From assembly GCA_026393795.1 (NCBI GenBank), contig JAPKZL010000050.1:1-11326 (forward strand): a stretch of 11,326 nucleotides of DNA, in the 5' to 3' direction. This DNA is from Candidatus Aminicenantes bacterium (GTDB lineage: Bacteria; Acidobacteriota; Aminicenantia; UBA2199). The translations under genes and the position numbers were made by a program. A model generated the notes under the pieces. The model was not told the DNA's origin and made no database searches. It was given only the letters and a program-made list of their open reading frames with translations. This document shows positions 1 to 11,326 of the stretch, piece after piece (positions within the stretch are counted from its first letter, which is position 1; each line of letters opens with the position of its first letter).

Positions 1-50
1 ATTTGCGTTCCCTACGGAAGAAAATCTCCACTGCATTTTTTTTGGACATT

Positions 51-157
51 GGAATTTGGAATTTGGAATTTTAGTCACACTATGGTTTCAGCAAGTTTGG
101 AATTCGCTGAAACCAACTAGTGTGACTATGGAATTTGGAATTTGTGATTTGGAATTT
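51..157. repeat. Composite element: (GGAATTT)x3 direct heptamer repeats (51-71), 20-bp imperfect inverted repeat AGTCACACTATGGTTTCAGC / GCTGAAACCAACTAGTGTGACT (73-92 and 106-127, 13-nt loop), then GGAATTT/GTGATTT heptamers x4 (130-157)
   Basis: Read directly from the sequence: tandem 7-mers on both sides of a long hairpin-capable palindrome, immediately upstream of rsmI. A T8 run lies at 36-43 just before it. Confidence 0.7.
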
Positions 158-180
158 AAGTCCTACGAGAGAACCATCTG

Positions 181-1005
181 ATGGCTCTCTACATCGTCCC
201 GACGCCGATCGGCAACCTGCAGGACATCACCGAACGGGCGGTCGTCGTCCTGCGCCGGGTCGACTTCATCATCGCCGAGGACAGCCGCTACTCGCAGAAG
301 CTTCTCAACCACTTCAACATCAAAAAACGGATCATCAGCCATTACCGTCCCAAGGAGGAAACGCAGGCGGAGAAGATCCTGGCCCTGCTCACCGGCCAGG
401 ACGGGGCTTTGATCACCGATTCGGGCACCCCGGCCATCTCCGATCCCGGCTTCATCCTGATCGCCAAAGCCATCGCACGGAACATCCCGGTCATCCCCCT
501 GCCTGGGCCGACCGCCTTTGTCCCGGCCCTGGTCGCTTCGGGCATCGATCCGCGCCGCTTCATCTTCCTCGGCTTTCCCCCGCGGGGACGAAACGACCTG
601 CACACTTTCTGCAAATCCCTGGCTCCCCTTCCCTATACCATGGTGTTTTACGAATCGCCGCGGCGCAGCGAGGAATTCCTGCGCAGCGCCGCCGCCGTGT
701 TCGGCGCACGCCCTTTCGCCCTGGCCAAGGAATTGAGCAAGAAGCATGAAACGATCATTCGCGGCCGTTTGGATGAATGGCCGCAGGCGCTGAAAGACCA
801 AACTATTCTGGGAGAAATCGTCATCGTCATCGCCGGCACCGGGGCCAAGGCGCACCCGGTCGAACCGCCGCCGCTGCTGCGGAGCATCGAGGACGTTTAC
901 GTCTATTTCCGCGAACGCCACGGCCTGGGTAAAAACTTGCTGAAGAAGATCCTCATGCAAAAGAAAGCAAAAAAAGCGGCCAAACGAGGTTCGGATGCCG
1001 GGTAA
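181..1005 (+). CDS. rsmI: 16S rRNA (cytidine1402-2'-O)-methyltransferase RsmI (tetrapyrrole-methylase fold)
   Basis: The N-terminus LYIVPTPIGNLQDIT, the DSRYSQKLL motif and the GTPAISDPG motif are hallmark RsmI signatures. The protein is 274 aa, a normal length for this family. Confidence 0.9.
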   Translation: MALYIVPTPIGNLQDITERAVVVLRRVDFIIAEDSRYSQKLLNHFNIKKRIISHYRPKEETQAEKILALLTGQDGALITDSGTPAISDPGFILIAKAIARNIPVIPLPGPTAFVPALVASGIDPRRFIFLGFPPRGRNDLHTFCKSLAPLPYTMVFYESPRRSEEFLRSAAAVFGARPFALAKELSKKHETIIRGRLDEWPQALKDQTILGEIVIVIAGTGAKAHPVEPPPLLRSIEDVYVYFRERHGLGKNLLKKILMQKKAKKAAKRGSDAG

Positions 1006-2125
1006 ACGTTTGGAACGAAACCACCGCCGGCAGCGGTTTTTTGGCGCCGCCCTCCTCCTGCTGCTCGCTTTGGGTGAACCGGGCTCCGCCCAGGACGAGG
1101 CCGCCGCCAAACCGCTCGAGCCGGCCCGCGGCGGCTTCGTGGTCGCCCCGGTCGTCTACTACACCCCCGAAACGCTTTTTTCATGGGGCATCGTCGGCAT
1201 CCATTATTTCCGCTTCGGCCGTTCCGTCGTCCCCTCCCGCCTTTCTCATTACCGCTTCAACCTGGTCCGCACCCAGAACAGGCAGACCATCGCCCAGGTG
1301 GACTACGAGCTCTACCTGGCCGGCGGCGCCATCCTGCTGGACGGCCAGGCGAAATACTGGCTTTACCCGGATCGTTTTTACGGCAGCGGCAACCGCAGCC
1401 TGGCACAGGACCGCGAAGACTTCAACGCCCGCAACTGGCGCCTGACGGCGAACCTCCAGCGCCGCTGGGGCGCGAACCTGTTCACCGGGATGCACCTGGA
1501 GATGTTCTCGCAAGCCATCACCGAAACCGCCGGCAACGGCCTGCTGGCCGCACGGGAGATCCCCGGCAGCCGCGGCGCCAGGCTGACCGCGATCGGCCTT
1601 TTCGGCAAGTGGGACAGCCGCGACAACACCTTCTCCGCCGGCAAGGGGGCTTATGGCGCGCTCTTGCTTAACTTTTTCCCCAAGGTGCTGGGCAGCGATT
1701 TTGCCTTCAGCCAGCTGACCCTGGACGCCAGGAATTACTTCCCTTTGGGCCGCGGCGCGGTGCTGGCCGTCCAGGCCATCGGCAAGACGACCTGGGGCGA
1801 GTGCCCGTTTCAGGCGCTGCCCATGTTCGGCGGCCTGAACCTGCTGCGCGGCTTCTACGAAGGCCGCTACCGCGATAAAAGCATGCTGGCCATACAGGCC
1901 GAGTACCGCCTGCCCTTGTGGCGGCGCTTCGGGTTGTGCGCTTTTGCCGGGTTGGCCCAGGTGCAGCCGCGGGCCGGGCTGCTGTCGCTGGCGGAATTTC
2001 ACCCGGCCGCCGGCGTCGGCCTGCGCTACAAGTTCAACCCGCGCGAGAACCTGAACGTCCGCCTGGACGTCGGCTTCGCCGACTCGTCCCCCGCCTTATA
2101 TCTCACCTTCGCCGAGGCATTTTGA
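995..2125 (+). CDS. Omp85/BamA-superfamily outer-membrane beta-barrel protein (Bac_surface_Ag-like, no POTRA domains)
   Basis: The ATG at 995 overlaps the rsmI stop by 11 nt and has GAGG 6 nt upstream. The N-terminus has a signal-like hydrophobic stretch, FFGAALLLLLALGEPGSAQD. The internal GGLNLLRGFYEGRY and AEYRLPL resemble the Omp85 loop-6 and barrel motifs. The C-terminal beta-signal LYLTFAEAF ends in Phe. Confidence 0.6.
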   Translation: MPGKRLERNHRRQRFFGAALLLLLALGEPGSAQDEAAAKPLEPARGGFVVAPVVYYTPETLFSWGIVGIHYFRFGRSVVPSRLSHYRFNLVRTQNRQTIAQVDYELYLAGGAILLDGQAKYWLYPDRFYGSGNRSLAQDREDFNARNWRLTANLQRRWGANLFTGMHLEMFSQAITETAGNGLLAAREIPGSRGARLTAIGLFGKWDSRDNTFSAGKGAYGALLLNFFPKVLGSDFAFSQLTLDARNYFPLGRGAVLAVQAIGKTTWGECPFQALPMFGGLNLLRGFYEGRYRDKSMLAIQAEYRLPLWRRFGLCAFAGLAQVQPRAGLLSLAEFHPAAGVGLRYKFNPRENLNVRLDVGFADSSPALYLTFAEAF

Positions 2126-2159
2126 CGATTTCACAAATAAAAACAATCTGGAGGATTCG

Positions 2160-3767
2160 ATGCGACGCATGCGAAACTGGTTGACTGTCTTGAGCCTGTT
2201 GATTTTCATCTGTATGCCGCTGGCAGCGGACGATATCTTCGCGCCGGTGAAGAAGGGCGAGTTGGACTCCGTTAAAACACTGCTGGAGAAGGACCCGGCC
2301 CTGCTGAATGCCCGGGGGGAATCCGACCGCACCCCCTTGCTGGAAGCCGTCCTTTCACGCCAGCCTGCCGTTTTTGAATTTCTGCTGGAAAAGGGGGCCG
2401 ATTTCAACCTGGTCAACAAGGAAGGCTTTGCCCCCGTTCATTTCGCCGCCTTCCTCGGGGAAACCGAGCTGGTCAAAATGCTCATTGCCAAGGGCGCTCC
2501 GCTGACCGTCAACGCCAACGTCATCGGGGCCACACCCCTCGACCTGGCCGTCAGCGCCGGGCGCAGGGAGATGGTCGAGCTGCTGATCGCCAAGGGGGCT
2601 CCGTTGAACCTGAAGGATAAAAAGGGCAACACGCCGCTGATCAAGGCTGTCCTGTCGGGGCGGGCGGAAATCGCCGGCCTGCTGATCCACAAAGGGGCCG
2701 CTGTCGATGAAAAAGACCAGATGGGCAGCACGCCGCTGCTGCTGGCCGCCCTGACCGGCCAGAAGGAGCTGGCGGCATGGCTGATCGAAAACAAGGCCGA
2801 CATCAACGCGGCCAACTCGCTCGGCGGCACGCCGCTCAGCGTCGCCGTCCGCGAGGGGCACCAGGAGGTCGTTGACCTGCTCGTGGCCAAGGGGGCGAGC
2901 AAGGATTTTCTCAAGCAGCCCGTCCTGGAAGGCGATTACCTGGGGCAGAAGATTCCCGGATTGGCGCCCGAGCGTTTCGCGCCGGGGACCGTATCGACCG
3001 AAAAAAGCGAATTGAACTCGGTTTTCAGTGCCGACGGCAAGGAGTTTTATTTTGCCGTCCAAAGCGGCCCAATGAAGTGGGTGATCATGGTGATGAAGCA
3101 GGAAAACGGCCGCTGGTCAAAACCGCTGCCGGCTTCGTTTTCCGGCCAGTACAGCGACGTCGATCTCTTCATCACCCCCGACAACAAGAGGCTGTTCTAC
3201 AGCTCCAACCGCCCGCTGGCGGAAAACGGAGCGGCCAAGAAGGATTTTGATATCTGGATGGTCGAGCGCACAACGGACGGCTGGTCAAAACCCAGCAATC
3301 CGGGCAGCCCGATCAATTCGGCCGAAGCCGAGTTCTATCCTTCGCTCACCGCGGACGGCACCCTGTATTTCCAGTCCCAGCGCCCGGACACTCTCGGCTC
3401 CAGGGACATTTACCGCTCCCGGCCGACCGACGGCAAGTATGAAAAAATTGAAAACCTCGGCGCCGCCATCAACAGCACCCTTTTCGAAGGAGACGCCCTG
3501 ATCGCGCCCAAGGAAGACTTCCTTGTTTTTTCGGTCGACCGCCCCGACAGCTTCGGCCAGGGCGACCTGTACATCAGCTTCCGTGATGCCAACGACGGCT
3601 GGACGACTCCGAAAAACATGGGCGACAAGATCAATTCCGAATACCACGAGAATTGCCCGATGCTCTCACCGGATGGAAAATTCCTGTTTTTCACCCGCAA
3701 CAACGACATCTACTGGGTGGACGCGCTGGTCATCAAGAATTTGCAGGGCGGCCAGCAGCCCCTCTGA
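2160..3767 (+). CDS. Secreted ankyrin-repeat (about 7 repeats) + PD40/TolB-like beta-propeller fusion protein
   Basis: GGAGG lies 7 nt upstream of the ATG. The N-terminal signal peptide is MRRMRNWLTVLSLLIFICMPLAADD. GxTPLxxAxxxGxxExVxxLIxKGA repeats recur between about residues 30 and 250. The C-terminal half carries PD40-type repeats: FSADGKEFYF, ITPDNKRLFYSS, LTADGTLYFQS, LSPDGKFLFFT. Confidence 0.8.
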   Translation: MRRMRNWLTVLSLLIFICMPLAADDIFAPVKKGELDSVKTLLEKDPALLNARGESDRTPLLEAVLSRQPAVFEFLLEKGADFNLVNKEGFAPVHFAAFLGETELVKMLIAKGAPLTVNANVIGATPLDLAVSAGRREMVELLIAKGAPLNLKDKKGNTPLIKAVLSGRAEIAGLLIHKGAAVDEKDQMGSTPLLLAALTGQKELAAWLIENKADINAANSLGGTPLSVAVREGHQEVVDLLVAKGASKDFLKQPVLEGDYLGQKIPGLAPERFAPGTVSTEKSELNSVFSADGKEFYFAVQSGPMKWVIMVMKQENGRWSKPLPASFSGQYSDVDLFITPDNKRLFYSSNRPLAENGAAKKDFDIWMVERTTDGWSKPSNPGSPINSAEAEFYPSLTADGTLYFQSQRPDTLGSRDIYRSRPTDGKYEKIENLGAAINSTLFEGDALIAPKEDFLVFSVDRPDSFGQGDLYISFRDANDGWTTPKNMGDKINSEYHENCPMLSPDGKFLFFTRNNDIYWVDALVIKNLQGGQQPL

Positions 3768-3786
3768 AAAGACGACTTAAACGGGC

Positions 3787-3817
3787 GGCAGCCGGCTGCG
3801 TTACGCATGCCGGCTGC
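3787..3817. terminator. GC-rich hairpin between convergent genes (candidate bidirectional terminator)
   Basis: GCAGCCGGCTGCG..CGCATGCCGGCTGC is an inverted repeat with a stem of about 13 bp and one bulge. It sits between the + gene ending at 3767 and the - gene ending at 3820. The T-rich flank is on the minus-strand side (GTTTAAGTCGTCTTTTC). Confidence 0.5.
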
Positions 3818-3819
3818 TG

Positions 3820-4590
3820 TCAATTCATAATCGACCGCTGGTCGTCCCTACCCGCAAACTCCTTGCCCAAGGTATATGCACGCTCCAGGTAGCCCCTCCG
3901 TGTGTCCTCGCCGACGGTGGGAACCCCGTAGAAATAGACATGCTCGACTTTTTTGACTCCCGGGTAGCGCAGTCCCCAGTCATCGATCATGCGCCGCATG
4001 GGCAGTTCCCAATCGGCCTTGTAATCTTTTTCGCTGAAAAGGGTGGTATTGATCACCAGCGCTTTTTCCTGGCGCAGCAGCGGCACCCTGCCGCTCGCGT
4101 CCCCTTGCCAGCCGACCGGCGTCAGGGCATAGGCGTCGCCGTAGGCAAAAACCCGCTCGAACCACCCTTTCAGGATGGCAGGAAAATGCAGCCAGTATAC
4201 CGGCGAGATAAAAACCAGTCCCTGGGCATTTTTGACTTTCTCCCACTGGGCCGTGACATCTTTAGGCCTGTGGCTGTGGATGAATTTCGCCACGGCCGGG
4301 AGATCCTTGTTGCGCAGCCAGCGTGAGGCCACGAACCTGCGCAAGGGGCCGCCGGCGGAGTCGATCACGTGCTGCTTGAGGTTCATTAGTTCAAGTATTT
4401 CCAGGGGCATGCTTTCGTGCACGTAGCTGGCAAAGTCCATGGTACGGAAGACGGGGTCGAAACGGATGGCGTAGAGGTCGACCACGTCGATTTCGTGGCC
4501 GGCATCCCGCAGTCCGGCGCTGAGACGCTCAAGGACGGCATGGCAGAAAGACTTGGGTTGCGGATGGGCGTAAACGATTAAAACTCTCAT
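3820..4590 (-). CDS. NAD(P)H:quinone oxidoreductase, NQO1/MdaB-like flavodoxin-fold (Flavodoxin_2 family)
   Basis: The true start is the ATG at 4590..4588, with an AAGGAG RBS 6 nt upstream on the minus strand. MRVLIVYAHPQPKSFCHAVLERL...DLYAIRFDPV is typical of FMN/FAD quinone reductases. The 184 extra N-terminal residues in the listed 440-aa ORF are low-complexity read-through. Confidence 0.8.
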   Translation of the reverse strand: MRVLIVYAHPQPKSFCHAVLERLSAGLRDAGHEIDVVDLYAIRFDPVFRTMDFASYVHESMPLEILELMNLKQHVIDSAGGPLRRFVASRWLRNKDLPAVAKFIHSHRPKDVTAQWEKVKNAQGLVFISPVYWLHFPAILKGWFERVFAYGDAYALTPVGWQGDASGRVPLLRQEKALVINTTLFSEKDYKADWELPMRRMIDDWGLRYPGVKKVEHVYFYGVPTVGEDTRRGYLERAYTLGKEFAGRDDQRSIMN

Positions 4591-4625
4591 TGACTGCTCC
4601 TTATGAAGTCGGTTTTGCGCATCAA

Positions 4626-5045
4626 TCAATACACGAATGGAACAAGTTTTTTCACCTGCGCCGCGTAGGCGGCAAAGCGCTCTCCGAAGGCTTGCTGCAA
4701 CCCCTTTTCCTCCAGGGCGATCAGGGGAAATATGATCGCCAGGTAGATCGCAAAAACCGCCAGGAGCGCCCCGGACTGGGTCAGGCAGAACAACCCGAAC
4801 GAAATACCCAGCGCCCCGGTGTACAGCGGGTTCCTGACCAGCCTGAAGGGTCCGCGGCTGACCAGATCGTCGTGGCGGCGCGGCGCGCTCCCCCCGAGCG
4901 GGTAGGTGCGGTGGTGAGCCATCCGCGGCCAGGGCATGATCAGCCTGTCGAAGATGGAGCCGGTCGCCAGGCGCTTGACGGCCACCAGCGCTGCCAGTAA
5001 GATCAGAATGGCTATCCCAAGTATGGTTTGATTGAATAGGTGCAT
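4626..5045 (-). CDS. Isoprenylcysteine carboxyl methyltransferase / phospholipid methyltransferase (ICMT/PEMT) family membrane protein
   Basis: The protein is hydrophobic and multi-TM. RLVRNPLYTGALGISFGLF and the C-terminal EEKGLQQAFGERFAAYAAQVKKLVP match the ICMT/PEMT signature. AAGGAGGAGGAG sits immediately upstream of the ATG at 5045. The gene is in a different frame from the over-extended 3820..5142 ORF. Confidence 0.7.
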   Translation of the reverse strand: MHLFNQTILGIAILILLAALVAVKRLATGSIFDRLIMPWPRMAHHRTYPLGGSAPRRHDDLVSRGPFRLVRNPLYTGALGISFGLFCLTQSGALLAVFAIYLAIIFPLIALEEKGLQQAFGERFAAYAAQVKKLVPFVY

Positions 5046-5056
5046 CTCCTCCTCCT

Positions 5057-5644
5057 TTATATTTGATCCGATTTTTTTGAATCATCCAAGTCTCCAGGTT
5101 GGCAGCTGCAACCCCCGGCTTCTCCATCAACCGCTTCTTCATCCTCGCTGCCGCAGCAGGAAACGGCTTGCTCCTCGCTTGCGCCCAGAACCGCCCCGGC
5201 CTCGGCTTTTGCCTTCTGGCAGGCGACGTCTCTTATCGCGCAAGCGATCTTTAGCGCCGCGAACATCTGCCCGTCCGTCGCCCCCAGGGCACGGGCGGCG
5301 TCCATGTGCCCCCTGACGCTGGTGCAGCAATTTACGGCATAGGCGGCGGCGATCGCCACGAGCTCGCGCAGCATCGTCGGGGCGCCGTCCGGTTCGGGGA
5401 TGGCCGGGCTCCACTCGGCCTGAGTCAAGCCGCCGGCCCTGGCCATGATGCCGGTCGCCGCCATCCTTACCCTGGCGGCATCACCTGCGGCTTGGCGGAT
5501 ATCTCCTTCGCTCGCTCCGGCGCCGGCCGCTGCCCGCAGGTGAAACTTGATGCAGGGCAGGCAGCCGCTGGCAACAGATGCTCCCACGGCGATGATCTCC
5601 TGATCTTTGTCGCCAAGGACAGGGTCTTCTTTGTGTTTGGTCAT
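5057..5644 (-). CDS. Carboxymuconolactone decarboxylase (CMD)/AhpD-like family protein with Cys-rich acidic C-terminal tail
   Basis: GCLPCIKFH is a CxxCxxxH AhpD-core motif, and a second CMD-like half carries NCCTSVRGH. The C-terminal tail is SCCGSEDEEAVDGEAGGCSCQPGDLDD. The track ORF starts at a TTG at 5665. I prefer the ATG at 5644, 6 nt after a GGGAGG RBS, though the ATG at 5647 is also possible. Confidence 0.6.
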   Translation of the reverse strand: MTKHKEDPVLGDKDQEIIAVGASVASGCLPCIKFHLRAAAGAGASEGDIRQAAGDAARVRMAATGIMARAGGLTQAEWSPAIPEPDGAPTMLRELVAIAAAYAVNCCTSVRGHMDAARALGATDGQMFAALKIACAIRDVACQKAKAEAGAVLGASEEQAVSCCGSEDEEAVDGEAGGCSCQPGDLDDSKKSDQI

Positions 5645-5761
5645 CATGAACCTCCCTGGATTCAATGGTAAGGACGAAATAGGGAATGCAATGGATACAT
5701 GGCCGGGAATCCGGCCCTTGGAGGAGGTTGGGAAAATCAGGGAAGATGCGTTGCCGGGGGG

Positions 5762-6331
5762 TTACTTTTTTGGTTCGCAGACCAGGACGCCGCGTTCGTC
5801 CAAAGAGAATTTGCAGCCGGATGCCAACATGGTTTTCAGCTGGCGCCGGGCGCGGTGGAGCCTGATCTTGACCGTGCTGAGCGGCAGGGCGAGGAGAGCG
5901 GCGATCTCAGGGCCGCTCACTCCGTGCATGTCATGAAGTAGAATCACCGAGCGGAAGGCATCGGGAATATCAGCCAGAAAGCGATTGACACAGGCGCTCA
6001 TTTGCTCCTGCTCGAGGGCTTGCTGCATCGAAGGCAAATCGGGGTCCGGAGGGTCGACGGCGGCGAGGTCAATCCCGGATTCCCTGGATGCGAAACGGGC
6101 CCGCTGCCGCAGCCGGTCGAGGCATACGTGGGTGGCGACACGATAGAGCCATGAAAGCAAGGCGCCCGGATCGCGCACCGTTTCGCGCTCGCGGTGGGCG
6201 CGGAGGAACGCCTCCTGGGTCAGGTCCTCGGCCTCGGCCGAGTCGCGGACCATGCCCCGGACATAGCGGAAGACGCGCTCGTAGTTTTTTTCGAAAAAGC
6301 CGGAAATGTCATCCGCTGGAGAGGCAGGCAT
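5762..6331 (-). CDS. ECF-type RNA polymerase sigma factor (sigma-70 family) with short Cys-containing C-terminal extension
   Basis: Region 2 is EDLTQEAFLRAHR and region 4 is the HTH GPEIAALLALPLSTVKIRLHRARRQLK. A 20-aa tail ASGCKFSLDERGVLVCEPKK follows. The likely start is the ATG at 6331 with a GGAGA RBS 5 nt upstream. The track ORF begins at an upstream GTG at 6364. Confidence 0.85.
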   Translation of the reverse strand: MPASPADDISGFFEKNYERVFRYVRGMVRDSAEAEDLTQEAFLRAHRERETVRDPGALLSWLYRVATHVCLDRLRQRARFASRESGIDLAAVDPPDPDLPSMQQALEQEQMSACVNRFLADIPDAFRSVILLHDMHGVSGPEIAALLALPLSTVKIRLHRARRQLKTMLASGCKFSLDERGVLVCEPKK

Positions 6332-6400
6332 ATTTTTCTCCTGGCAATTTAGGAGGTGCGTCACGCGTTTCTATCATGAGCACAATTTTAGGGAATCAGC

Positions 6401-6416
6401 TGCAAAAATGCAACCA
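6401..6416 (-). promoter_or_regulatory. Candidate sigma-54 (-24/-12) promoter TGGTTGCATTTTTGCA upstream of the ECF sigma gene
   Basis: The minus-strand sequence has GG and GC at the correct 10-nt spacing and an exact TTGCA -12 element. It lies about 70 nt upstream of the ATG at 6331. A sigma-54 activator gene is present in the window. Confidence 0.3.
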
Positions 6417-6433
6417 GTGAAAACAGTTGACTT

Positions 6434-6467
6434 TGACGGTGCGCTCTTGCCTCACCTTTTCACCCTT
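6434..6467 (-). repeat. 34-bp copy (33/34 identical) of the rnpB P10-P12 conserved core, direct repeat of 8984-9017
   Basis: TGACGGTG[C/A]GCTCTTGCCTCACCTTTTCACCCTT occurs at both sites. The minus-sense sequence AAGGGTGAAAAGGTGAGGCAAGAGCGCACC matches the universal RNase P RNA motif. The flanks do not continue the rnpB homology. Confidence 0.7.
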
Positions 6468-6542
6468 GCTGAACAGAGCACAGACGGCCGAGCAGTTTTT
6501 TCTTCAGACATATCGGAAACTCCGGAACCTGCCGTCGGAGGT

Positions 6543-8615
6543 TTACTTTTTGGGCAACTTCTGGCCGGGGATCCCCGGCTCCGAGGGCTTGATACCCGGC
6601 TTGCGTTCAATTTCGGCCACGGGCTTTTTTTCGACCGCTACGATGCCTTTCGTTATATTGCCAAGGACGGCAGCCATGAGGCCTTCGGATGTGCCGCCGC
6701 CCTTCTCGCCGCCGATGACCAGGATGGCGGGCATGATCTTGATGCCATTATCGGCAAGGGCCTTGATGGCGTTGACGACAGCAGTGGCTTGCGGACCGAG
6801 GGCTTGCACCTGGCGCTCGTAGGCTTCGGCGCTGGCCATACCGATCGCGCGGACTTCGACGCCTTTGGCATTGCCCACATCGGTGAGAAAACTGGCCTCG
6901 CCTTGACCTTCCACCTTGCGCGCATCGGCCTGGTTCTTCCTGATCTCGATCCCAACCTTGGACTTGGCCAGCTCGGCCTGCATTTCGGCGGTTCCCTTGC
7001 TCTGTTCCATGGCGATGCGCTGGTCCTGAGCGTCTTTTTGTTTCTGGAAGGTCGTGATTTCCTGGTTGGCAATTTCGCGCTGGGTCAGGACAGTCACCAT
7101 CTGCGGTGGCAGGATGACGTCCTGGATGTAGACCCCGCGGGTCTCCACTTCGTATTCGTTCAACTTGTTTCGGATGTGCTCATTCGCCTCTTCCTGCACT
7201 CCCTGCCGGGTCTCGATAAAGCGGATGGCGGGCATGCTCTGGAGCTTGTCACGGAAGTGGTTGCCCACGGCAGCCTGAAGCACCTCGTTGACCAGGTTGG
7301 TCATGGTGCCGACGATGCTGATCACCTTCGGGGCCTTCGTGTCCGGTACGTGGATCTGGACCTGGAGATCGATGTTGAAGATGAAGCCTTCGCGGCTCTT
7401 GGCCTCGATCTGCTTGAGCTCCTGATCCAGGTTGTGCGCCTTGGAGGTGGCCTCAGCCCAGTTCAGGGTCAGGATGCAAGTCGGAACAATCTCGGCATTG
7501 TAGATGTGTGGGTTGATGGGGTATTTCCCGGTGCGCAAGGGTTCTTCCCAAATGCCGCGATGGCCGGGCCTCACGAGACTGCCGAACTTGAAAGTCTCTC
7601 CGGACGTGTCCTCGGTCGGAAGCCCGACATAGGATTTGACCACGGCGACCTCGCCCTGTTCGATGACCAGCATGGGGACAATCTCGATCTCGACAAGGAA
7701 AGGATTGAGAATGTAGGCGCCGTAGAGCAGCGGGTCGTGTTGCAGACCTATTTTTCCGCCGTTGTCCAGGAATGCCTGGAAGTCCTGGTAGTTATTGTGG
7801 AGATTGTTCTTGTTGCCAAGGATGACTTCGATGAGCTCAGAGTTCCTTACCGGGTTAGCTTTCGTCGCTGCACGTTCAATTTTTGCGATATCGTCATAGC
7901 CGCCGAGGCGCGAAGCAATGTCGCCCGAAGGTAAAGGATCGCCTTCGAGGGCCGTGATGATGCCGATGGCGTCTATAAGTCTATCCACGCCGTTTTTTGC
8001 GTTTCTCTCGAACAAGGGAGCGATGCGGGTGACGTTCAATTGGCCTTCGTGCTTGAGCCCGAAGTTCACGAAGCTGAGTCCGCCGCGTTCACGGGAAGCC
8101 CGCTGGAGCTCCGGAGAGACCGGCAGACCATAAACATTTTTCTTGGTGATGACCAGAAATCCGACCGGATGGATGGGAAGGGTCTGGCCTGGGGAGAGGA
8201 CCCGCCGCTGGACGCCCTTTTGGCCGCCATTCTCGATGAAAACGCGGAGGTCGGTGAAATTACCAAACACCTTCTTGTCGACAGCCGACTTGGCGCCGGT
8301 GGGAAGGGACGATCCGACCTGGGCAATGACGACCCCGATCTCGCCGGCGGGGATCTGAATCCAAGGATACTTGTCCACTTTATAGACGAGCCAGAACTTG
8401 AAGCGCCAGCCGGGCATGAGCAGTTCCGATTGGTAACCGGCTTCACCGTTGAATGCAATGACGTTGTCTTTCGACAGTTTCTTGAAGCCGAACCTCTTGG
8501 TGACAAGACCGACTTCGGTCGGGCCGATCATCCTGATCGAGGGCCAGATGAGGAAGACGAAAAGAAAAATGAAAGAACCAGCATAAAGAAACGGGGTGAT
8601 CGGAGTCAAATCCAT
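6543..8615 (-). CDS. Flotillin-family (SPFH/band-7, YqiK/FloT-like) membrane protein with duplicated SPFH region
   Basis: The ATG at 8615 has an AGGAGG RBS 6 nt upstream. The N-terminal TM is PFLYAGSFIFLFVFLIWPSI, followed by the PTEVGLVTKRFG SPFH start. A second SPFH-like segment leads into an Ala/Glu/Gln-rich coiled-coil (AEMQAELAKSKVGIEIRKNQADARKVEG). The C-terminus LADNGIKIMPAILVIGGEKGGG is typical of flotillins. Confidence 0.85.
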   Translation of the reverse strand: MDLTPITPFLYAGSFIFLFVFLIWPSIRMIGPTEVGLVTKRFGFKKLSKDNVIAFNGEAGYQSELLMPGWRFKFWLVYKVDKYPWIQIPAGEIGVVIAQVGSSLPTGAKSAVDKKVFGNFTDLRVFIENGGQKGVQRRVLSPGQTLPIHPVGFLVITKKNVYGLPVSPELQRASRERGGLSFVNFGLKHEGQLNVTRIAPLFERNAKNGVDRLIDAIGIITALEGDPLPSGDIASRLGGYDDIAKIERAATKANPVRNSELIEVILGNKNNLHNNYQDFQAFLDNGGKIGLQHDPLLYGAYILNPFLVEIEIVPMLVIEQGEVAVVKSYVGLPTEDTSGETFKFGSLVRPGHRGIWEEPLRTGKYPINPHIYNAEIVPTCILTLNWAEATSKAHNLDQELKQIEAKSREGFIFNIDLQVQIHVPDTKAPKVISIVGTMTNLVNEVLQAAVGNHFRDKLQSMPAIRFIETRQGVQEEANEHIRNKLNEYEVETRGVYIQDVILPPQMVTVLTQREIANQEITTFQKQKDAQDQRIAMEQSKGTAEMQAELAKSKVGIEIRKNQADARKVEGQGEASFLTDVGNAKGVEVRAIGMASAEAYERQVQALGPQATAVVNAIKALADNGIKIMPAILVIGGEKGGGTSEGLMAAVLGNITKGIVAVEKKPVAEIERKPGIKPSEPGIPGQKLPKK

Positions 8616-8695
8616 AATGAACCTCCTAAAAACCAGAAATTCTTACTCAATGCCCCGGCAAACCTCGGCATAGTGATCCTCTCCCTACAATTGGA

Positions 8696-8724
8696 ATTTT
8701 AAGGCAATTCGATTTAAATTACAA
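8696..8724 (-). promoter_or_regulatory. Candidate sigma-70 promoter for the flotillin gene (TTGTAA-N17-TAAAAT)
   Basis: On the minus strand the -35 TTGTAA sits at plus 8719-8724 and the -10 TAAAAT at plus 8696-8701, with a 17-nt spacer. That is about 80 nt upstream of the ATG at 8615. Confidence 0.35.
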
Positions 8725-8799
8725 TATCGATCAGCGTTTTTTTAGGTCGGGTAAAAGGCTTCCGGCATATTGTCCGCCGGTTTCCAGAAGAGCGATGAA

Positions 8800-9189
8800 T
8801 AATGGGAGCAGCAGGGTGCGGACTGTAAGCCGGGTTCTGTCTAGAAGAATCATTTATCTGCCCGCGGCATTACTGCCGCGGTCCAGCAGCTAACCCGAGG
8901 GCCTCGGCCGGGAAAGCCTCGAACGCCCTCTGTTAAGCCTTGCTCCGGATGGGGTTTGTCTCAGTCCTGCCTGTCGCCAGGCGTGACGGTGAGCTCTTGC
9001 CTCACCTTTTCACCCTTACGGCCGCCGTTGCCGGCGGCTCGCGGTCTGTTCTCTGTGACACTGTCCTGTTCCCCCGTCTGAGCGGGGGAAAATCCCTGTT
9101 GGGGATCATCCTTCCCTGCGGAGCCCGGACTTTCCTCCCCTCTCAGTTAAGAGAGAGGCGATTCTTCATCCGCACCCTGCTGCTCCTTC
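8800..9189 (-). ncRNA. rnpB: RNase P RNA, bacterial type A
   Basis: The minus-strand sequence contains the P4 halves GGAAAGUCCGGGCUCC (plus 9120-9135) and ACAGAACCCGGCUUA (plus 8826-8840). It also contains AAGGGUGAAAAGGUGAGGCAAGAGCUCACC (plus 8988-9017) and CCGGAGCAAGGC. An 18-bp P1 helix pairs GGAGCAGCAGGGUGCGGA (plus 9169-9186) with UCCGCACCCUGCUGCUCC (plus 8805-8822). The total is about 390 nt. A TGnTATAAT extended -10 sits immediately upstream at plus 9190-9198. Confidence 0.9.
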
Positions 9190-9262
9190 ATTATACCAGG
9201 AGATTCGATTTTTTGATAGAGGTTGCGGCGCAGCAGGCCGGTTACCTGACGACGATATACTC
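9147..9262 (-). pseudogene. Remnant/duplicate of the 3' end (Fis-type HTH and C-terminus) of a sigma-54 activator gene, overlapping the rnpB promoter and 5' end
   Basis: The minus-strand frame reads ...[32 protein letters not shown]. The true activator C-terminus at 10353-10470 reads ...[36 protein letters not shown] identity is about 81% over 85 bp, with two perfectly conserved blocks of 17 and 21 bp and the stop codon in the same position. Confidence 0.55.
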
Positions 9263-10285
9263 CTTGATTTTGGCGAAAGTCTTCTCCTTGATGCCTTTGA
9301 CCTTCATAATGTCTTCGATCTTGGCATAAGGGCGTCCGGCGATGATCGCCTTGGCTTTGACCGGGCCGATACCCAGGAGACCGTCGAGTTGCTCCTCGCT
9401 GGCTTTGTTGATGTTGATCGTCTCGCCGGGCTTGAGCTTGGGCGAGACGGCCGTTTCATCATCCGCTTCAACGGTCACCAGGTTTTTGATGTCGTCGAAT
9501 CTCGCCTGGCCGATGCCGCTGACATTCTTAATGTCCTCGACGTTCTTGAAAGGCCGGGCGGCGATGATCTTCTCGGCAAGCTCCGGTCCGATGCCGGGGA
9601 GTGCTTCCAGGGCGGCTTTATCGGCGCTGTTCAGGTCAACAGGTCCGGCGGCTGTTGACTGCTTGGCGGCCGGCGAGGTCTGTTTAGCGGCAGCCTTGGC
9701 TTCGCTCTCTATCTTTTTGCCGGCCTTGGCTGCTTTAACCGTCACCAGGTCCTTAAGTTTGTCGAATGTCGCCTGGCCGATGCCCTTGACATTTTTCAGG
9801 TCATCGACGTTTTTGAAGGGACGGGCGGCGATGATGTTTTCAGCCAAGGTTGAACCGATTCCCGGCAGGTTTTCAATGGCCGCCTCGTCGGCGGTGTTGA
9901 GATTGACGATCTCCCCGGCAACGGTTTTATCGTTTCCCTTGGCGGCTGTTTCGGTCTTGGCTTTGGCCTTGGTCGCGGTTTCGGCCGTTTTAGCGGCCTC
10001 GGCCGCCTCGACAGTCACCAAGTCCTTGAGATCGTCGAATTTTGCCTGGCCGATGCCGCTGACGTTTTTCAGGTCAGCGATGCTTTTGAACGGACGGGCG
10101 GCGATGATCTTCTGGGCCAAGGAAGGGCCAACGCCCTTCAAGGCCTCGAGCTTGGCCAGGGTGGCGGTATTCAGGTTTATTTTTTTCGCTTTCGCCGCGG
10201 CGCCAGCTGGCATGGCCAGCGAACCCAAGAGCAAGCCAAGAACCACCAGGGAAAAAACAAAATGACAACAAATTCTGTTTTTCAT
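9242..10285 (-). CDS. Secreted protein with four tandem ComEA-like helix-hairpin-helix (HhH) DNA-binding modules
   Basis: The signal peptide is MKNRICCHFVFSLVVLGLLLGSLAMPAGAAA. Four repeats of xNLNTAxxxxLExLPGIGxxLAxKIIAARPFKxxxDLKNVxGIGQAxFDxLKxLVTV are separated by Ala/Lys/Thr-rich linkers. The RBS is GAGGT. Confidence 0.85.
   Translation of the reverse strand: MKNRICCHFVFSLVVLGLLLGSLAMPAGAAAKAKKINLNTATLAKLEALKGVGPSLAQKIIAARPFKSIADLKNVSGIGQAKFDDLKDLVTVEAAEAAKTAETATKAKAKTETAAKGNDKTVAGEIVNLNTADEAAIENLPGIGSTLAENIIAARPFKNVDDLKNVKGIGQATFDKLKDLVTVKAAKAGKKIESEAKAAAKQTSPAAKQSTAAGPVDLNSADKAALEALPGIGPELAEKIIAARPFKNVEDIKNVSGIGQARFDDIKNLVTVEADDETAVSPKLKPGETININKASEEQLDGLLGIGPVKAKAIIAGRPYAKIEDIMKVKGIKEKTFAKIKEYIVVR
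9245..10180 (-). repeat. DNA-level tandem repeats (about 267-273 nt period, 3 close copies + 1 divergent) encoding the HhH modules
   Basis: GTCACCAGGT.. units recur at 9474, 9741 and 10014. The flanking sequences are highly similar (..GCCTGGCCGATGCCGCTGACATT..GGCGGCGATGATCTTCTC..). Confidence 0.8.
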
Positions 10286-10321
10286 TATTTTATTACCTCA
10301 TTCGCTATTTTGATTAAAAAT

Positions 10322-10351
10322 ATTATATTTTGCCGATCCAGTAAAAGTCAA
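10322..10351 (-). promoter_or_regulatory. Near-consensus sigma-70 promoter TTGACT-N18-TATAAT driving the ComEA-like gene
   Basis: On the minus strand the -35 TTGACT is at plus 10346-10351 and the -10 TATAAT at plus 10322-10327. This is about 30 nt upstream of the ATG at 10285, with the -35 abutting the stop of the upstream activator gene. Confidence 0.6.
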
Positions 10352-10352
10352 A

Positions 10353-11326
10353 TTAAGAAATCGGCGATTCTTCATCCGCGCCCTGCGGCTCGACCATGAT
10401 GCCGAGGGACGCGATTTTTTGATAGAGGTTGCTGCGCGGGAGGCCGATCTCGCGGGCCGTCTTGGCCACGTTGTACTCGTATTCCTTCAGCTTCTGTTCC
10501 AGGTAGGCCTTTTCCGCCTCGTTCTTGAACTCCTTCCAATTCTTGATCTGGAGCAGCGCCATTTCGCCGCCGGCGCTGCTGCCATTGATGTAATCGGGCA
10601 GATCCTGGCTGGTGATCGGATCGGTGCGGCACATGATCAGGAGCCTTTCCACCAGGTTGCGCAACTCGCGCACGTTGCCCTTCCAGGGATAATCCAGCAG
10701 CCGGGAGAGCGCCTCGGGGGAAAATACCTTTTTCTTGTAATTGTTCTCCTCGGAAAAGTAATTGATGAAATGCTCGATCAGCAGCGGGATGTCCTCCTTT
10801 CTTTCGCGCAGCGCCGGCGAATGGATCGGCACCACGTTCAGACGGAAAAAGAGGTCTTCGCGGAAATTGTTCTTCCTGATCTCCTCCTCCAGGTTCTTGT
10901 TGGTGGCCGCGATGACGCGGACGTTGACCTTCTTGATCTCCGGCGAGCCCACCGGCTGCACCTCGCCCTCCTCGAGCACGCGTAAGACCTTGGCCTGGGC
11001 CTTCAGGCTCAGGTCGCCGATCTCGTCCAGGAAAATGCTGCCGCGGTGGGCGCTTTCGAACTTGCCGATCTTTTTCTCATAGGCCCCGGTGAACGATCCT
11101 TTTTCATGCCCGAAAAGCTCGCTCTCGATCAGCTCGTCGGGAATGGCGGCGCAGTTGACCTGGACGAAACGGTTCTGGCTGCGGGCGGACTGCTGGTGGA
11201 TCAGGCGGGCGATGAGTTCCTTGCCGGTGCCGCTGTCGCCGGAGATCAGGACGGTGGAATCGCTGCGGGCCACGCGCCGTATCGTTTCCAGCAGGGCTTT
11301 CATGACCGCCGATTGCCCCACCAGCT
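10353..11326 (-). CDS. Sigma-54-dependent transcriptional activator (NtrC/EBP family), 5'-truncated by the window edge; AAA+ sigma-54 interaction domain + Fis-type HTH
   Basis: The Walker A is [14 protein letters not shown] is the GAFTGA-type sigma-54 contact loop. The arginine-finger region is RVIAATN...ELRNL, and the C-terminal HTH is [19 protein letters not shown]. The N-terminal sensory or receiver domain lies beyond position 11326. Confidence 0.9.

Follow-up and report, generated by a model that had tools for sequence, protein, structure and literature searches.

A duplicated activator/rnpB overlap flanks a ComEA-like gene in Candidatus Aminicenantes

Genes and direct repeat at the locus

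The stretch of DNA analyzed here (the window) comprises 11,326 nucleotides (nt) of a Candidatus Aminicenantes bacterium (JAPKZL010000050.1, positions 1 to 11,326), i.e. one contig of a metagenome-assembled genome (MAG), known from one record. On its minus strand, read from right to left, lie the 3' part of a sigma-54 activator gene, a sigma-70 promoter, an open reading frame (ORF) for a ComEA-like protein and rnpB, the gene for RNase P RNA. A direct repeat flanks the ComEA-like cassette, with one copy at the end of the activator gene and the other at the start of rnpB. In relatives this segment serves both genes at once, as the extended -10 element of rnpB and the 5' strands of its helices P1 to P3 double as the last ~25 codons of the activator. 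The window very probably derives from such an overlap by insertion of the cassette with duplication of the shared segment, followed by complementary decay of the two copies.

The activator gene (10353..11326, minus strand, as are all features of the repeat region; stop codon TAA at 10355..10353) is truncated at the window end, which leaves its 3' two-thirds. Pfam domains in this part are Sigma54_activat (PF00158, E 6e-72), AAA_lid_14 and HTH_8 (1.4e-7), and the GAFTGA-type loop, read in the translation as GSFTGA, is that of an AAA+ domain that interacts with sigma-54. Full-length orthologues have 464-467 amino acids (aa), carry a Response_reg (receiver) domain and go by the JGI name NtrX; the receiver thus lies outside the window, and together with HTH_8 it places the protein in the NtrC/NtrX type. 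A sigma-70-type promoter, TTGACT-18-TATAAT (10322..10351, 11/12 matches in a promoter scan), abuts the activator stop and precedes the ComEA-like ORF (9242..10285, stop codon 9242-9244). The latter encodes a putative secreted protein of 347 aa with HHH_3 matches in four stretches (Pfam, 1e-73). Its N-terminus is hydrophobic (MKNRICCHFVFSLVVLGLLLGSLAMPAGAAA), so that the HHH_3 modules would stand behind an export or anchor segment, as predicted for a ComEA-like DNA receptor. Canonical ComEA has one HHH_3 module, whereas the window protein is a multi-module relative with four, for which DNA binding is predicted. Internal direct repeats of 267-273 nt, 63-72% identical, match these four modules at 9426-10177, and homologues of the protein have 2-5 modules.

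The rnpB gene occupies 8805..9186. Its Rfam RF00010 match (9177..8810, E 6e-87) scores 267.6 bits against a gathering score of 100, covers model positions 1-367 and includes all conserved elements, as in other class A RNase P RNAs. An 18-nt perfect inverted repeat (8805-8822 / 9169-9186) lengthens P1 by ~9 base pairs (bp) past the ends of the Rfam model, and transcription probably starts near 9183-9186, at the 5' end of this extended P1. The extended -10 TGGTATAAT, read from the sequence, lies at 9190..9198. There is no good -35 upstream, which is why the scan for two-hexamer consensus promoters gives no call there; the promoter was assigned from the extended -10, which is conserved and keeps a fixed distance to P1.

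The original prediction had drawn attention to a direct repeat around the cassette, and pairwise alignment agrees: 9147-9240 and 10353-10446 match over 94 nt with 81% identity, i.e. 18 differences, at a spacing of 1206. The bounds first given (9153-9262 / 10361-10470) lie a few bases off: the match begins with the stop codon that both copies share (9147 / 10353) and peters out around 9240 / 10446, which in the left copy coincides with the stop of the ComEA-like ORF. As had been claimed, the right copy is the 3' end of the activator ORF and encodes its C-terminus, including part of the HTH_8 domain (HTH, helix-turn-helix); its former rnpB -10 has decayed to CGGCATCAT, and it is without the P3 3' strand. 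The left copy, just upstream of and inside rnpB, is a relic of the activator HTH and tail codons with a remnant open frame, and is now the rnpB promoter region together with the P1, P2 and P3 5' strands. ORF and promoter scans likewise find nothing between the copies other than the ComEA-like ORF and its own promoter.

Two exact cores stand out within the repeat, namely 17 nt at 9157-9173 and 10363-10379 (GGCGATTCTTCATCCGC) and 21 nt at 9206-9226 and 10412-10432 (CGATTTTTTGATAGAGGTTGC), each with exactly two occurrences against 0.01 and 0.00 expected from shuffles, respectively. These had been ascribed to constraint or to a recombination core. They coincide with the segments most conserved in all orthologues, AACCTCTATCAAAAAATCG and GATGAAGAATCGCC, and constraint therefore explains them; since the same blocks are the most conserved parts of unduplicated orthologues, a special recombination core is unnecessary and was rejected.

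The activator/rnpB overlap in relatives

Species-representative genomes were scanned with the activator fragment, giving 80 loci, the closest of which are labelled Candidatus Aminicenantes, and rnpB was located in them by Rfam and nhmmer (loci of relatives are given as L numbers). A metagenome scan had few close relatives among the matches listed; exact-protein look-ups were more productive and added uninterrupted loci at 86-92% identity (L161-L163, L166-L169, L173-L175, L177). An ancestral overlap lacking the ComEA-like gene, as originally proposed, is indeed seen in more than 30 Aminicenantes-type loci with activators 61-92% identical to that of the window (the above plus L004-L008, L010-L012, L014 and L081-L091), among them the closest relative, L161 (92%). 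Here rnpB follows the activator directly on the same strand, with no gene between, and model position 1 precedes the end of the activator stop codon by 31-79 nt. The distance is 31 nt in most loci and 34-37 nt in a few; it reaches 79 nt in L010, L014, L090 and L091, where the activator ORF reads through the universally conserved GGAGGAAAGUCCGG. The long version is found at L010 2855-2933 and L014 1853-1931, with activator tails ending in EESPGSAGQDGS and EESPNSTGQDAG, respectively. In L175 (1870-2195), rnpB seems to be without model positions ~139-181, a deletion in the P12 region, compared with the otherwise identical L173 and L174.

In the uninterrupted loci the activator codons L-G-I-(M/I), i.e. 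CTT GGT ATA AT(G/A), are the rnpB extended -10. Over all loci examined, 29 in number, the motif TGnTATAAw is present upstream of rnpB. In the uninterrupted loci, the activator tail beyond the -10 (e.g. HQQDADEESPxx), which is presumably translated, is read from the 5' strands of P1, P2 and P3, and its stop codon lies in the P3 loop. The overlap was at first thought to involve the P1 5' strand, which it does, but it also takes in those of P2 and P3. In other Acidobacteriota (Vicinamibacterales and others, ~55-58% identity), by contrast, the activator ends in NLYKKLEQYQISQETDG, rnpB starts 18-330 nt downstream and a TACAAT-like -10 comes right after the activator stop. An NtrX-type activator followed by rnpB on the same strand is a widely conserved order in these non-Aminicenantes loci (L015-L160). 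The linkage is therefore old, and the physical overlap is a feature of Aminicenantes.

Both codes leave their mark on the shared DNA. Among 22 non-identical sequences from uninterrupted loci, conserved residues ahead of the HTH end are written with 3-5 synonymous codons (entropies of 1.5-2.1 bits for Thr, Ala, Arg, Leu and Pro); codon choice narrows from the NLY motif on, and is fixed at the -10, with Gly as GGT in 19/19 and Ile as ATA in 22/22. On the RNA side, an alignment of 20 Aminicenantes sequences was used to compare the 5' strands of P1 (18 pairs), P2 (8) and P3 (8), which lie inside the ORF, with their non-coding partners. Standard pairs occur in 91% of cells, falling to 42-52% when the helix partners are slid by 1-3 columns as a control, and double-sided changes are found in 25 of the 34 helix pairs, including 16 of 18 in P1; none of 500 shuffles reaches the observed values. 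Covariation thus supports the P1 and P2 helices and the P3 hairpin of a class A RNase P RNA. As P1-P3 covary with non-coding partners, the variable tail residues (HQQDAD, ENSEAD, EQQGAD) follow the RNA helix.

Same-strand overlapping genes exist in bacteria, e.g. rpmH/rnpA in Thermus, as does DNA with both coding and regulatory roles, and there too one stretch yields two products with synonymous variation suppressed. The difference here is that the partner is a structured ribozyme gene with its promoter, and that the protein tail is dictated by P1-P3. Compared with a typical RF00010 member, to which the window rnpB is otherwise alike in its full-length match, P1 is ~18 bp long and the 5' ~40 nt lie within protein-coding sequence or, in the window, derive from it. 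The RNase P RNA, the NtrX-type activator and the ComEA-like protein are ordinary members of their families; what is unusual is that a ribozyme gene and its promoter overlap a protein tail on the same strand, and that this overlap has repeatedly been resolved by duplication and complementary decay. We found no report of an overlap between rnpB and a protein gene, or of its resolution by duplication, in a literature search whose coverage was incomplete and which is thus no proof of novelty; searches on rnpB as an integration site, on rnpB with ntrX and on Aminicenantes RNase P RNA gave no pertinent papers. We thus see an essential ribozyme gene that, promoter included, sits within the 3' codons of a regulator gene, an arrangement conserved throughout a candidate phylum-level lineage, with a protein tail written by RNA helices. 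It may be asked whether read-through transcripts from the activator contribute to rnpB maturation, and whether the activator mRNA is cut short by such processing.

Cassette origin and reciprocal decay of the copies

The closest homologues of the ComEA-like protein (83% and 81% aa identity) are found in L170/L171, between FecR-domain and membrane-transport genes and far from rnpB, while an exact look-up of the protein gave no other contig. Over promoter and ORF, the window cassette is 85% identical in DNA to the L170/L171 copy, and this homology ends exactly at the ORF stop on one side and within ~8 nt of the activator stop on the other. The inserted unit is therefore promoter plus gene, ~1.12 kilobases (kb). 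It is flanked by a recipient segment that runs from ~-72 to ~+22..+31, counted from Rfam model position 1. The proposal that the overlap was duplicated when the cassette was acquired thus stands, given the off-site homologue and a homology that stops at the cassette ends. Another ComEA-like gene (73% aa identity) is located directly upstream of rnpB in L172 (2695-7060), behind four other inserted genes. It is 76% identical to the window cassette in nucleotides, its promoter region is not homologous, and it may represent the same event as the window or a second capture of this gene family.

With L161 as an unduplicated outgroup, each substitution in the copies can be assigned to a lineage. L161 is well suited for this because a 3-nt deletion and a GGAT>GGGT change are common to L161 and both window copies. 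Over the 94 nt the two copies share 76 positions, the activator-side copy shares 82 with L161 and the rnpB-side copy 84. The activator-side copy has seven synonymous and two amino-acid changes (Q>P, L>I) relative to L161; three of the synonymous ones turn TGGTATAAT into CGGCATCAT, destroying the -10, and another weakens P1. The L>I change falls in the last codons before the stop and may stem from the junction rather than from point mutation, as donor-like homology begins ~8 nt before the activator stop. In the rnpB-side copy there are no synonymous and five codon-changing differences (P>L, S>R, A>E, L>P, V>K), whereas -10 and P1 are retained, and so is P3, via a compensatory C>U / G>A. This contrast (7:2 versus 0:5, Fisher p = 0.02) answers the question of synonymous versus non-synonymous divergence that the original prediction had posed, and agrees with its view that the left copy keeps P1 and the promoter and the right copy the protein C-terminus. 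The pattern extends beyond the window, as TGnTATAAw is mutated in five of ten activator copies that are detached from rnpB (window, L172, L002, L037 and L009) versus none of 29 that adjoin it (p = 4e-4).

Duplication-degeneration-complementation (DDC), or subfunctionalization, is a model of duplicate evolution in which copies lose complementary functions, and the losses seen here, of promoter and RNA pairing on one side and of coding sense on the other, are of this kind and polarized by an unduplicated outgroup. Unlike in the classical case, the duplicated unit is not a whole gene but ~94 nt of two different genes, and the subfunctions divided between the copies are a protein C-terminus on the one hand and the 5' end of an RNA plus its promoter on the other.

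Taken as a sequence of events, the ancestor would have had the rnpB promoter and the P1-P3 5' strands within the last codons of the activator, and in the window lineage a 1.1-kb ComEA-like cassette with its own promoter would have been placed between the two genes. Since neither gene may be broken, the only viable rearrangement would be one in which the shared segment was duplicated. Each copy would then have been freed from one of two constraints, so that the activator-side copy could keep the protein tail and lose promoter and RNA pairing, and the rnpB-side copy could keep promoter and helices and lose coding sense.

Insertions at the junction and rival explanations

The original prediction described a single event, which holds for the window, yet the junction has been used independently several times. 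Relatives show at least five more insertions there whose cargo is unrelated, each between duplications of a like kind and some of them serial. In L002 and L013, a 297-aa CARDB-domain protein is encoded between activator and rnpB. L037 has a 138-aa membrane zinc-ribbon protein between repeats of ~165 nt that are ~95% identical, and its activator copy already reads TATCAT and GGAAGAACGUCCGGAC. The same arrangement in L003 is followed by three more genes, a second copy and a further insert. In L176, a 397-aa lipoprotein gene comes after an rnpB relic, and then a second copy broken at +70. L172 has the four genes and the ComEA-like gene described above, L001 at least 3.6 kb of other genes, and L164 and L165 genes for a 526-aa protein, a FecR-domain protein and more, over 6 kb in all, with rnpB not within the locus. 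Past the activator stop, non-coding rnpB 5' relics extend to ~+47 in L002/L013, ~+74 in L037 and L003 and +105 in L176, from which it follows that the overlap came first. The copies in L013 are 100% identical over ~75 nt while those in its sister L002 have diverged, which argues for gene conversion or recombination between copies. Annotation pipelines will call such rnpB 5' relics, and the rnpB-side relic of the activator, noise or spurious ORFs.

Overlapping genes are expected to be hard to separate, yet at least six independent insertions have been accommodated here by duplicating the shared segment, and the junction is in this sense a repeated natural experiment. By selection, every surviving insertion duplicates at least the segment from promoter to activator stop, although this does not explain where the duplication comes from. 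The molecular route can be suggested along either of two lines, both with random endpoints filtered by selection. A tandem duplication could have copied a unit from the activator 3' end with rnpB and downstream cargo, after which the upstream rnpB copy would mostly be lost; hot-spot cargo would thereby pass from the downstream to the upstream side of rnpB, and the occurrence of rnpB relics at scattered places fits such a history. Alternatively, a template-switch insertion may have re-entered the template upstream of its departure point. Site-specific integration of an element with its own rnpB 5' segment would be a third route that fits structurally. When all cargos were compared with all loci by tblastn, none was found to adjoin rnpB downstream elsewhere, which neither supports nor excludes the tandem model.

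Several points weigh against the sequence of overlap, duplicating insertion and complementary decay. Among the loci seen there is neither a bare tandem duplication nor an intermediate of any route, the window is a single MAG contig, and the rnpB 5' end, the use of its promoter and the translation of the activator tail are predicted from sequence. Furthermore, the L172 case could mean that the window insertion is older, or that it was brought in by recombination from a relative, in which case L161 would need to have reverted by recombination between repeats.

It is also conceivable, if rather unlikely in our judgment, that the activator/rnpB overlap is a true recombination hot spot with a mechanism of its own and not a passive site. 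Transcription-replication conflict or a structure-prone rnpB 5' end might then drive template switching, or rnpB might serve an unrecognized recombinase system as a landing pad at both ends, 5' and 3'. Repeated cassette insertions with unusually long target duplications (100-170 nt) would be the outcome, and the palindrome-rich elements found in relatives with duplicated rnpB 3' ends would be part of that system as well.

Direct repeats are known to flank islands at transfer RNA (tRNA), transfer-messenger RNA (tmRNA) or dusA genes, e.g. those of dusA 5'-end-specific integrases (PMC4482086). The junction resembles these in that cargo lies between direct repeats of part of a conserved gene, the target is restored and the locus is reused serially. 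The repeats could accordingly be attL/attR-like sites of an integrative element that targets the 5' part of rnpB and brings its own promoter and 5' end, with the cassettes as remnants. Several independent cargos at one junction, in part serial (L003, L176) like tandem island arrays, would suit this explanation, as would the duplication of the rnpB 3' end around small palindrome-rich inserts (L037, L166, L167, L173-L175, L177) and the variability of both rnpB flanks next to a constant PmbA-PmbA-activator block. We nevertheless hold it to be improbable. None of the cargos examined, the inserts of 5.9 kb and of over 6 kb among them, contains an integrase or recombinase domain, and the cargos are single ordinary genes with their own promoters. 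No tyrosine or serine recombinase was found by Pfam in the cargo of L001, L002, L003 and L037 or in the gene tables of L164, L172 and L176, the far ends of the largest inserts being out of view; nor did Pfam reveal an integrase, transposase or recombinase in the cargo proteins of L001, L002, L003, L037 and L009, where the one weak match to a PD-(D/E)XK domain (L009, E 0.008) is below the curated cut-off. Duplication endpoints vary, one being at +22/31, ~+47, ~+74 or +105 and the other anywhere from ~-60 to -100, and no crossover core is common to the independent insertions, although later erosion could blur endpoints; a relic endpoint of ~+24 is found both in L164 and in the second insert of L003. 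The lineage-specific 3-nt deletion and GGGT, common with L161, are in both window copies, and the second copy thus stems from the host itself rather than from an element of foreign origin.

A transposon target-site duplication, of fixed length in the range of 2-14 bp, does not fit, as the repeats are 94 nt here and ~165 nt in L037, and the cassette ends have no inverted repeats and no transposase is present.

A different reading has the order activator, ComEA-like gene, rnpB as old and the uninterrupted overlap of e.g. L161 as secondary, arisen by deletion through recombination between repeats. L172, whose activator is only 85% identical, likewise has a ComEA-like gene in the same orientation immediately upstream of rnpB, and direct repeats of 94-165 nt can recombine, as the homogenized copies of L013 indicate. 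Even so, such a history is highly improbable. The overlap spans the whole depth of the group (61-92% identity), with inserts in a minority and their cargos unrelated, and the window cassette is nearer to the off-site L170/L171 copy, promoter included, than to L172, with which it shares no promoter. Each window copy is also nearer to L161 than to the other copy, and if L161 had reverted from diverged copies, either its -10 would be dead or its tail scrambled, which is not the case. An artefact of assembly or binning, or a similarity due to chance or convergence, can practically be dismissed as the source of the repeat despite the origin of the window in a metagenome-assembled contig from a single record, since 18 differences between the copies do not fit a collapsed or mis-joined identical repeat, these differences follow function, the same architecture with other cargos recurs in independent assemblies from different projects, and the expected number of occurrences of the exact cores is close to zero.

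Further features concern the surroundings of rnpB, the flanks of which mark a variable island in Aminicenantes-type genomes. While the PmbA-PmbA-activator block upstream is constant, the sequence flanking rnpB on either side differs between loci, as far as a conserved Omp85 / TP_methylase / NAD-synthase block. Relatives have duplications of the rnpB 3' end (model ~304-372 or 328-372) around nested palindromic hairpin units, e.g. ACTTTCACTATGATTTCAAC...GTTGAAATCATTGAGTGAAAGTAT and GACAAACTAGATCC...CCAAAGTCGGCGGATAGTTTGTGC, at L037 7930-8190, L166 11670-12060, L167 11734-12235, L177 5700-5817 and L173 6546-6590. These units look like a small element associated with rnpB and similar to a miniature inverted-repeat transposable element (MITE). 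L166 and L177 also have an insert of ~55 nt within the P18 loop of rnpB. Several cargo genes of the larger inserts share a promoter-like motif, TTGACAT..(C/G)A(G/T)A(C/T)AATTA.C(C/T)T.A.AAT, in their upstream DNA (L164 11440-11480 and 13400-13450; L003 ~2330-2370).

In the window itself, a relic of a further rnpB copy (6415..6503, minus strand) covers model positions 118-204 (nhmmer E 8e-9; Rfam cmscan 24.1 bits, E 2e-5), and its AAGGGTGAAAAGGTGAGGCAAGAGC.CACCGTCA almost matches the real rnpB. It adjoins a gene for a 690-aa SPFH/Band-7 protein on the downstream side, so that the rnpB region occurs three times, complete or in part. Between rnpB and an Omp85-like gene (995-2125) lie ~7 kb of accessory genes (2160-8615), which encode e.g. 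the SPFH protein, a likely extracytoplasmic function (ECF) sigma factor (5762-6364), a 440-aa flavodoxin-fold protein and a 535-aa ankyrin/PD40 protein. In L083, L011 and L167, the Omp85-like gene is the direct downstream neighbor of rnpB.

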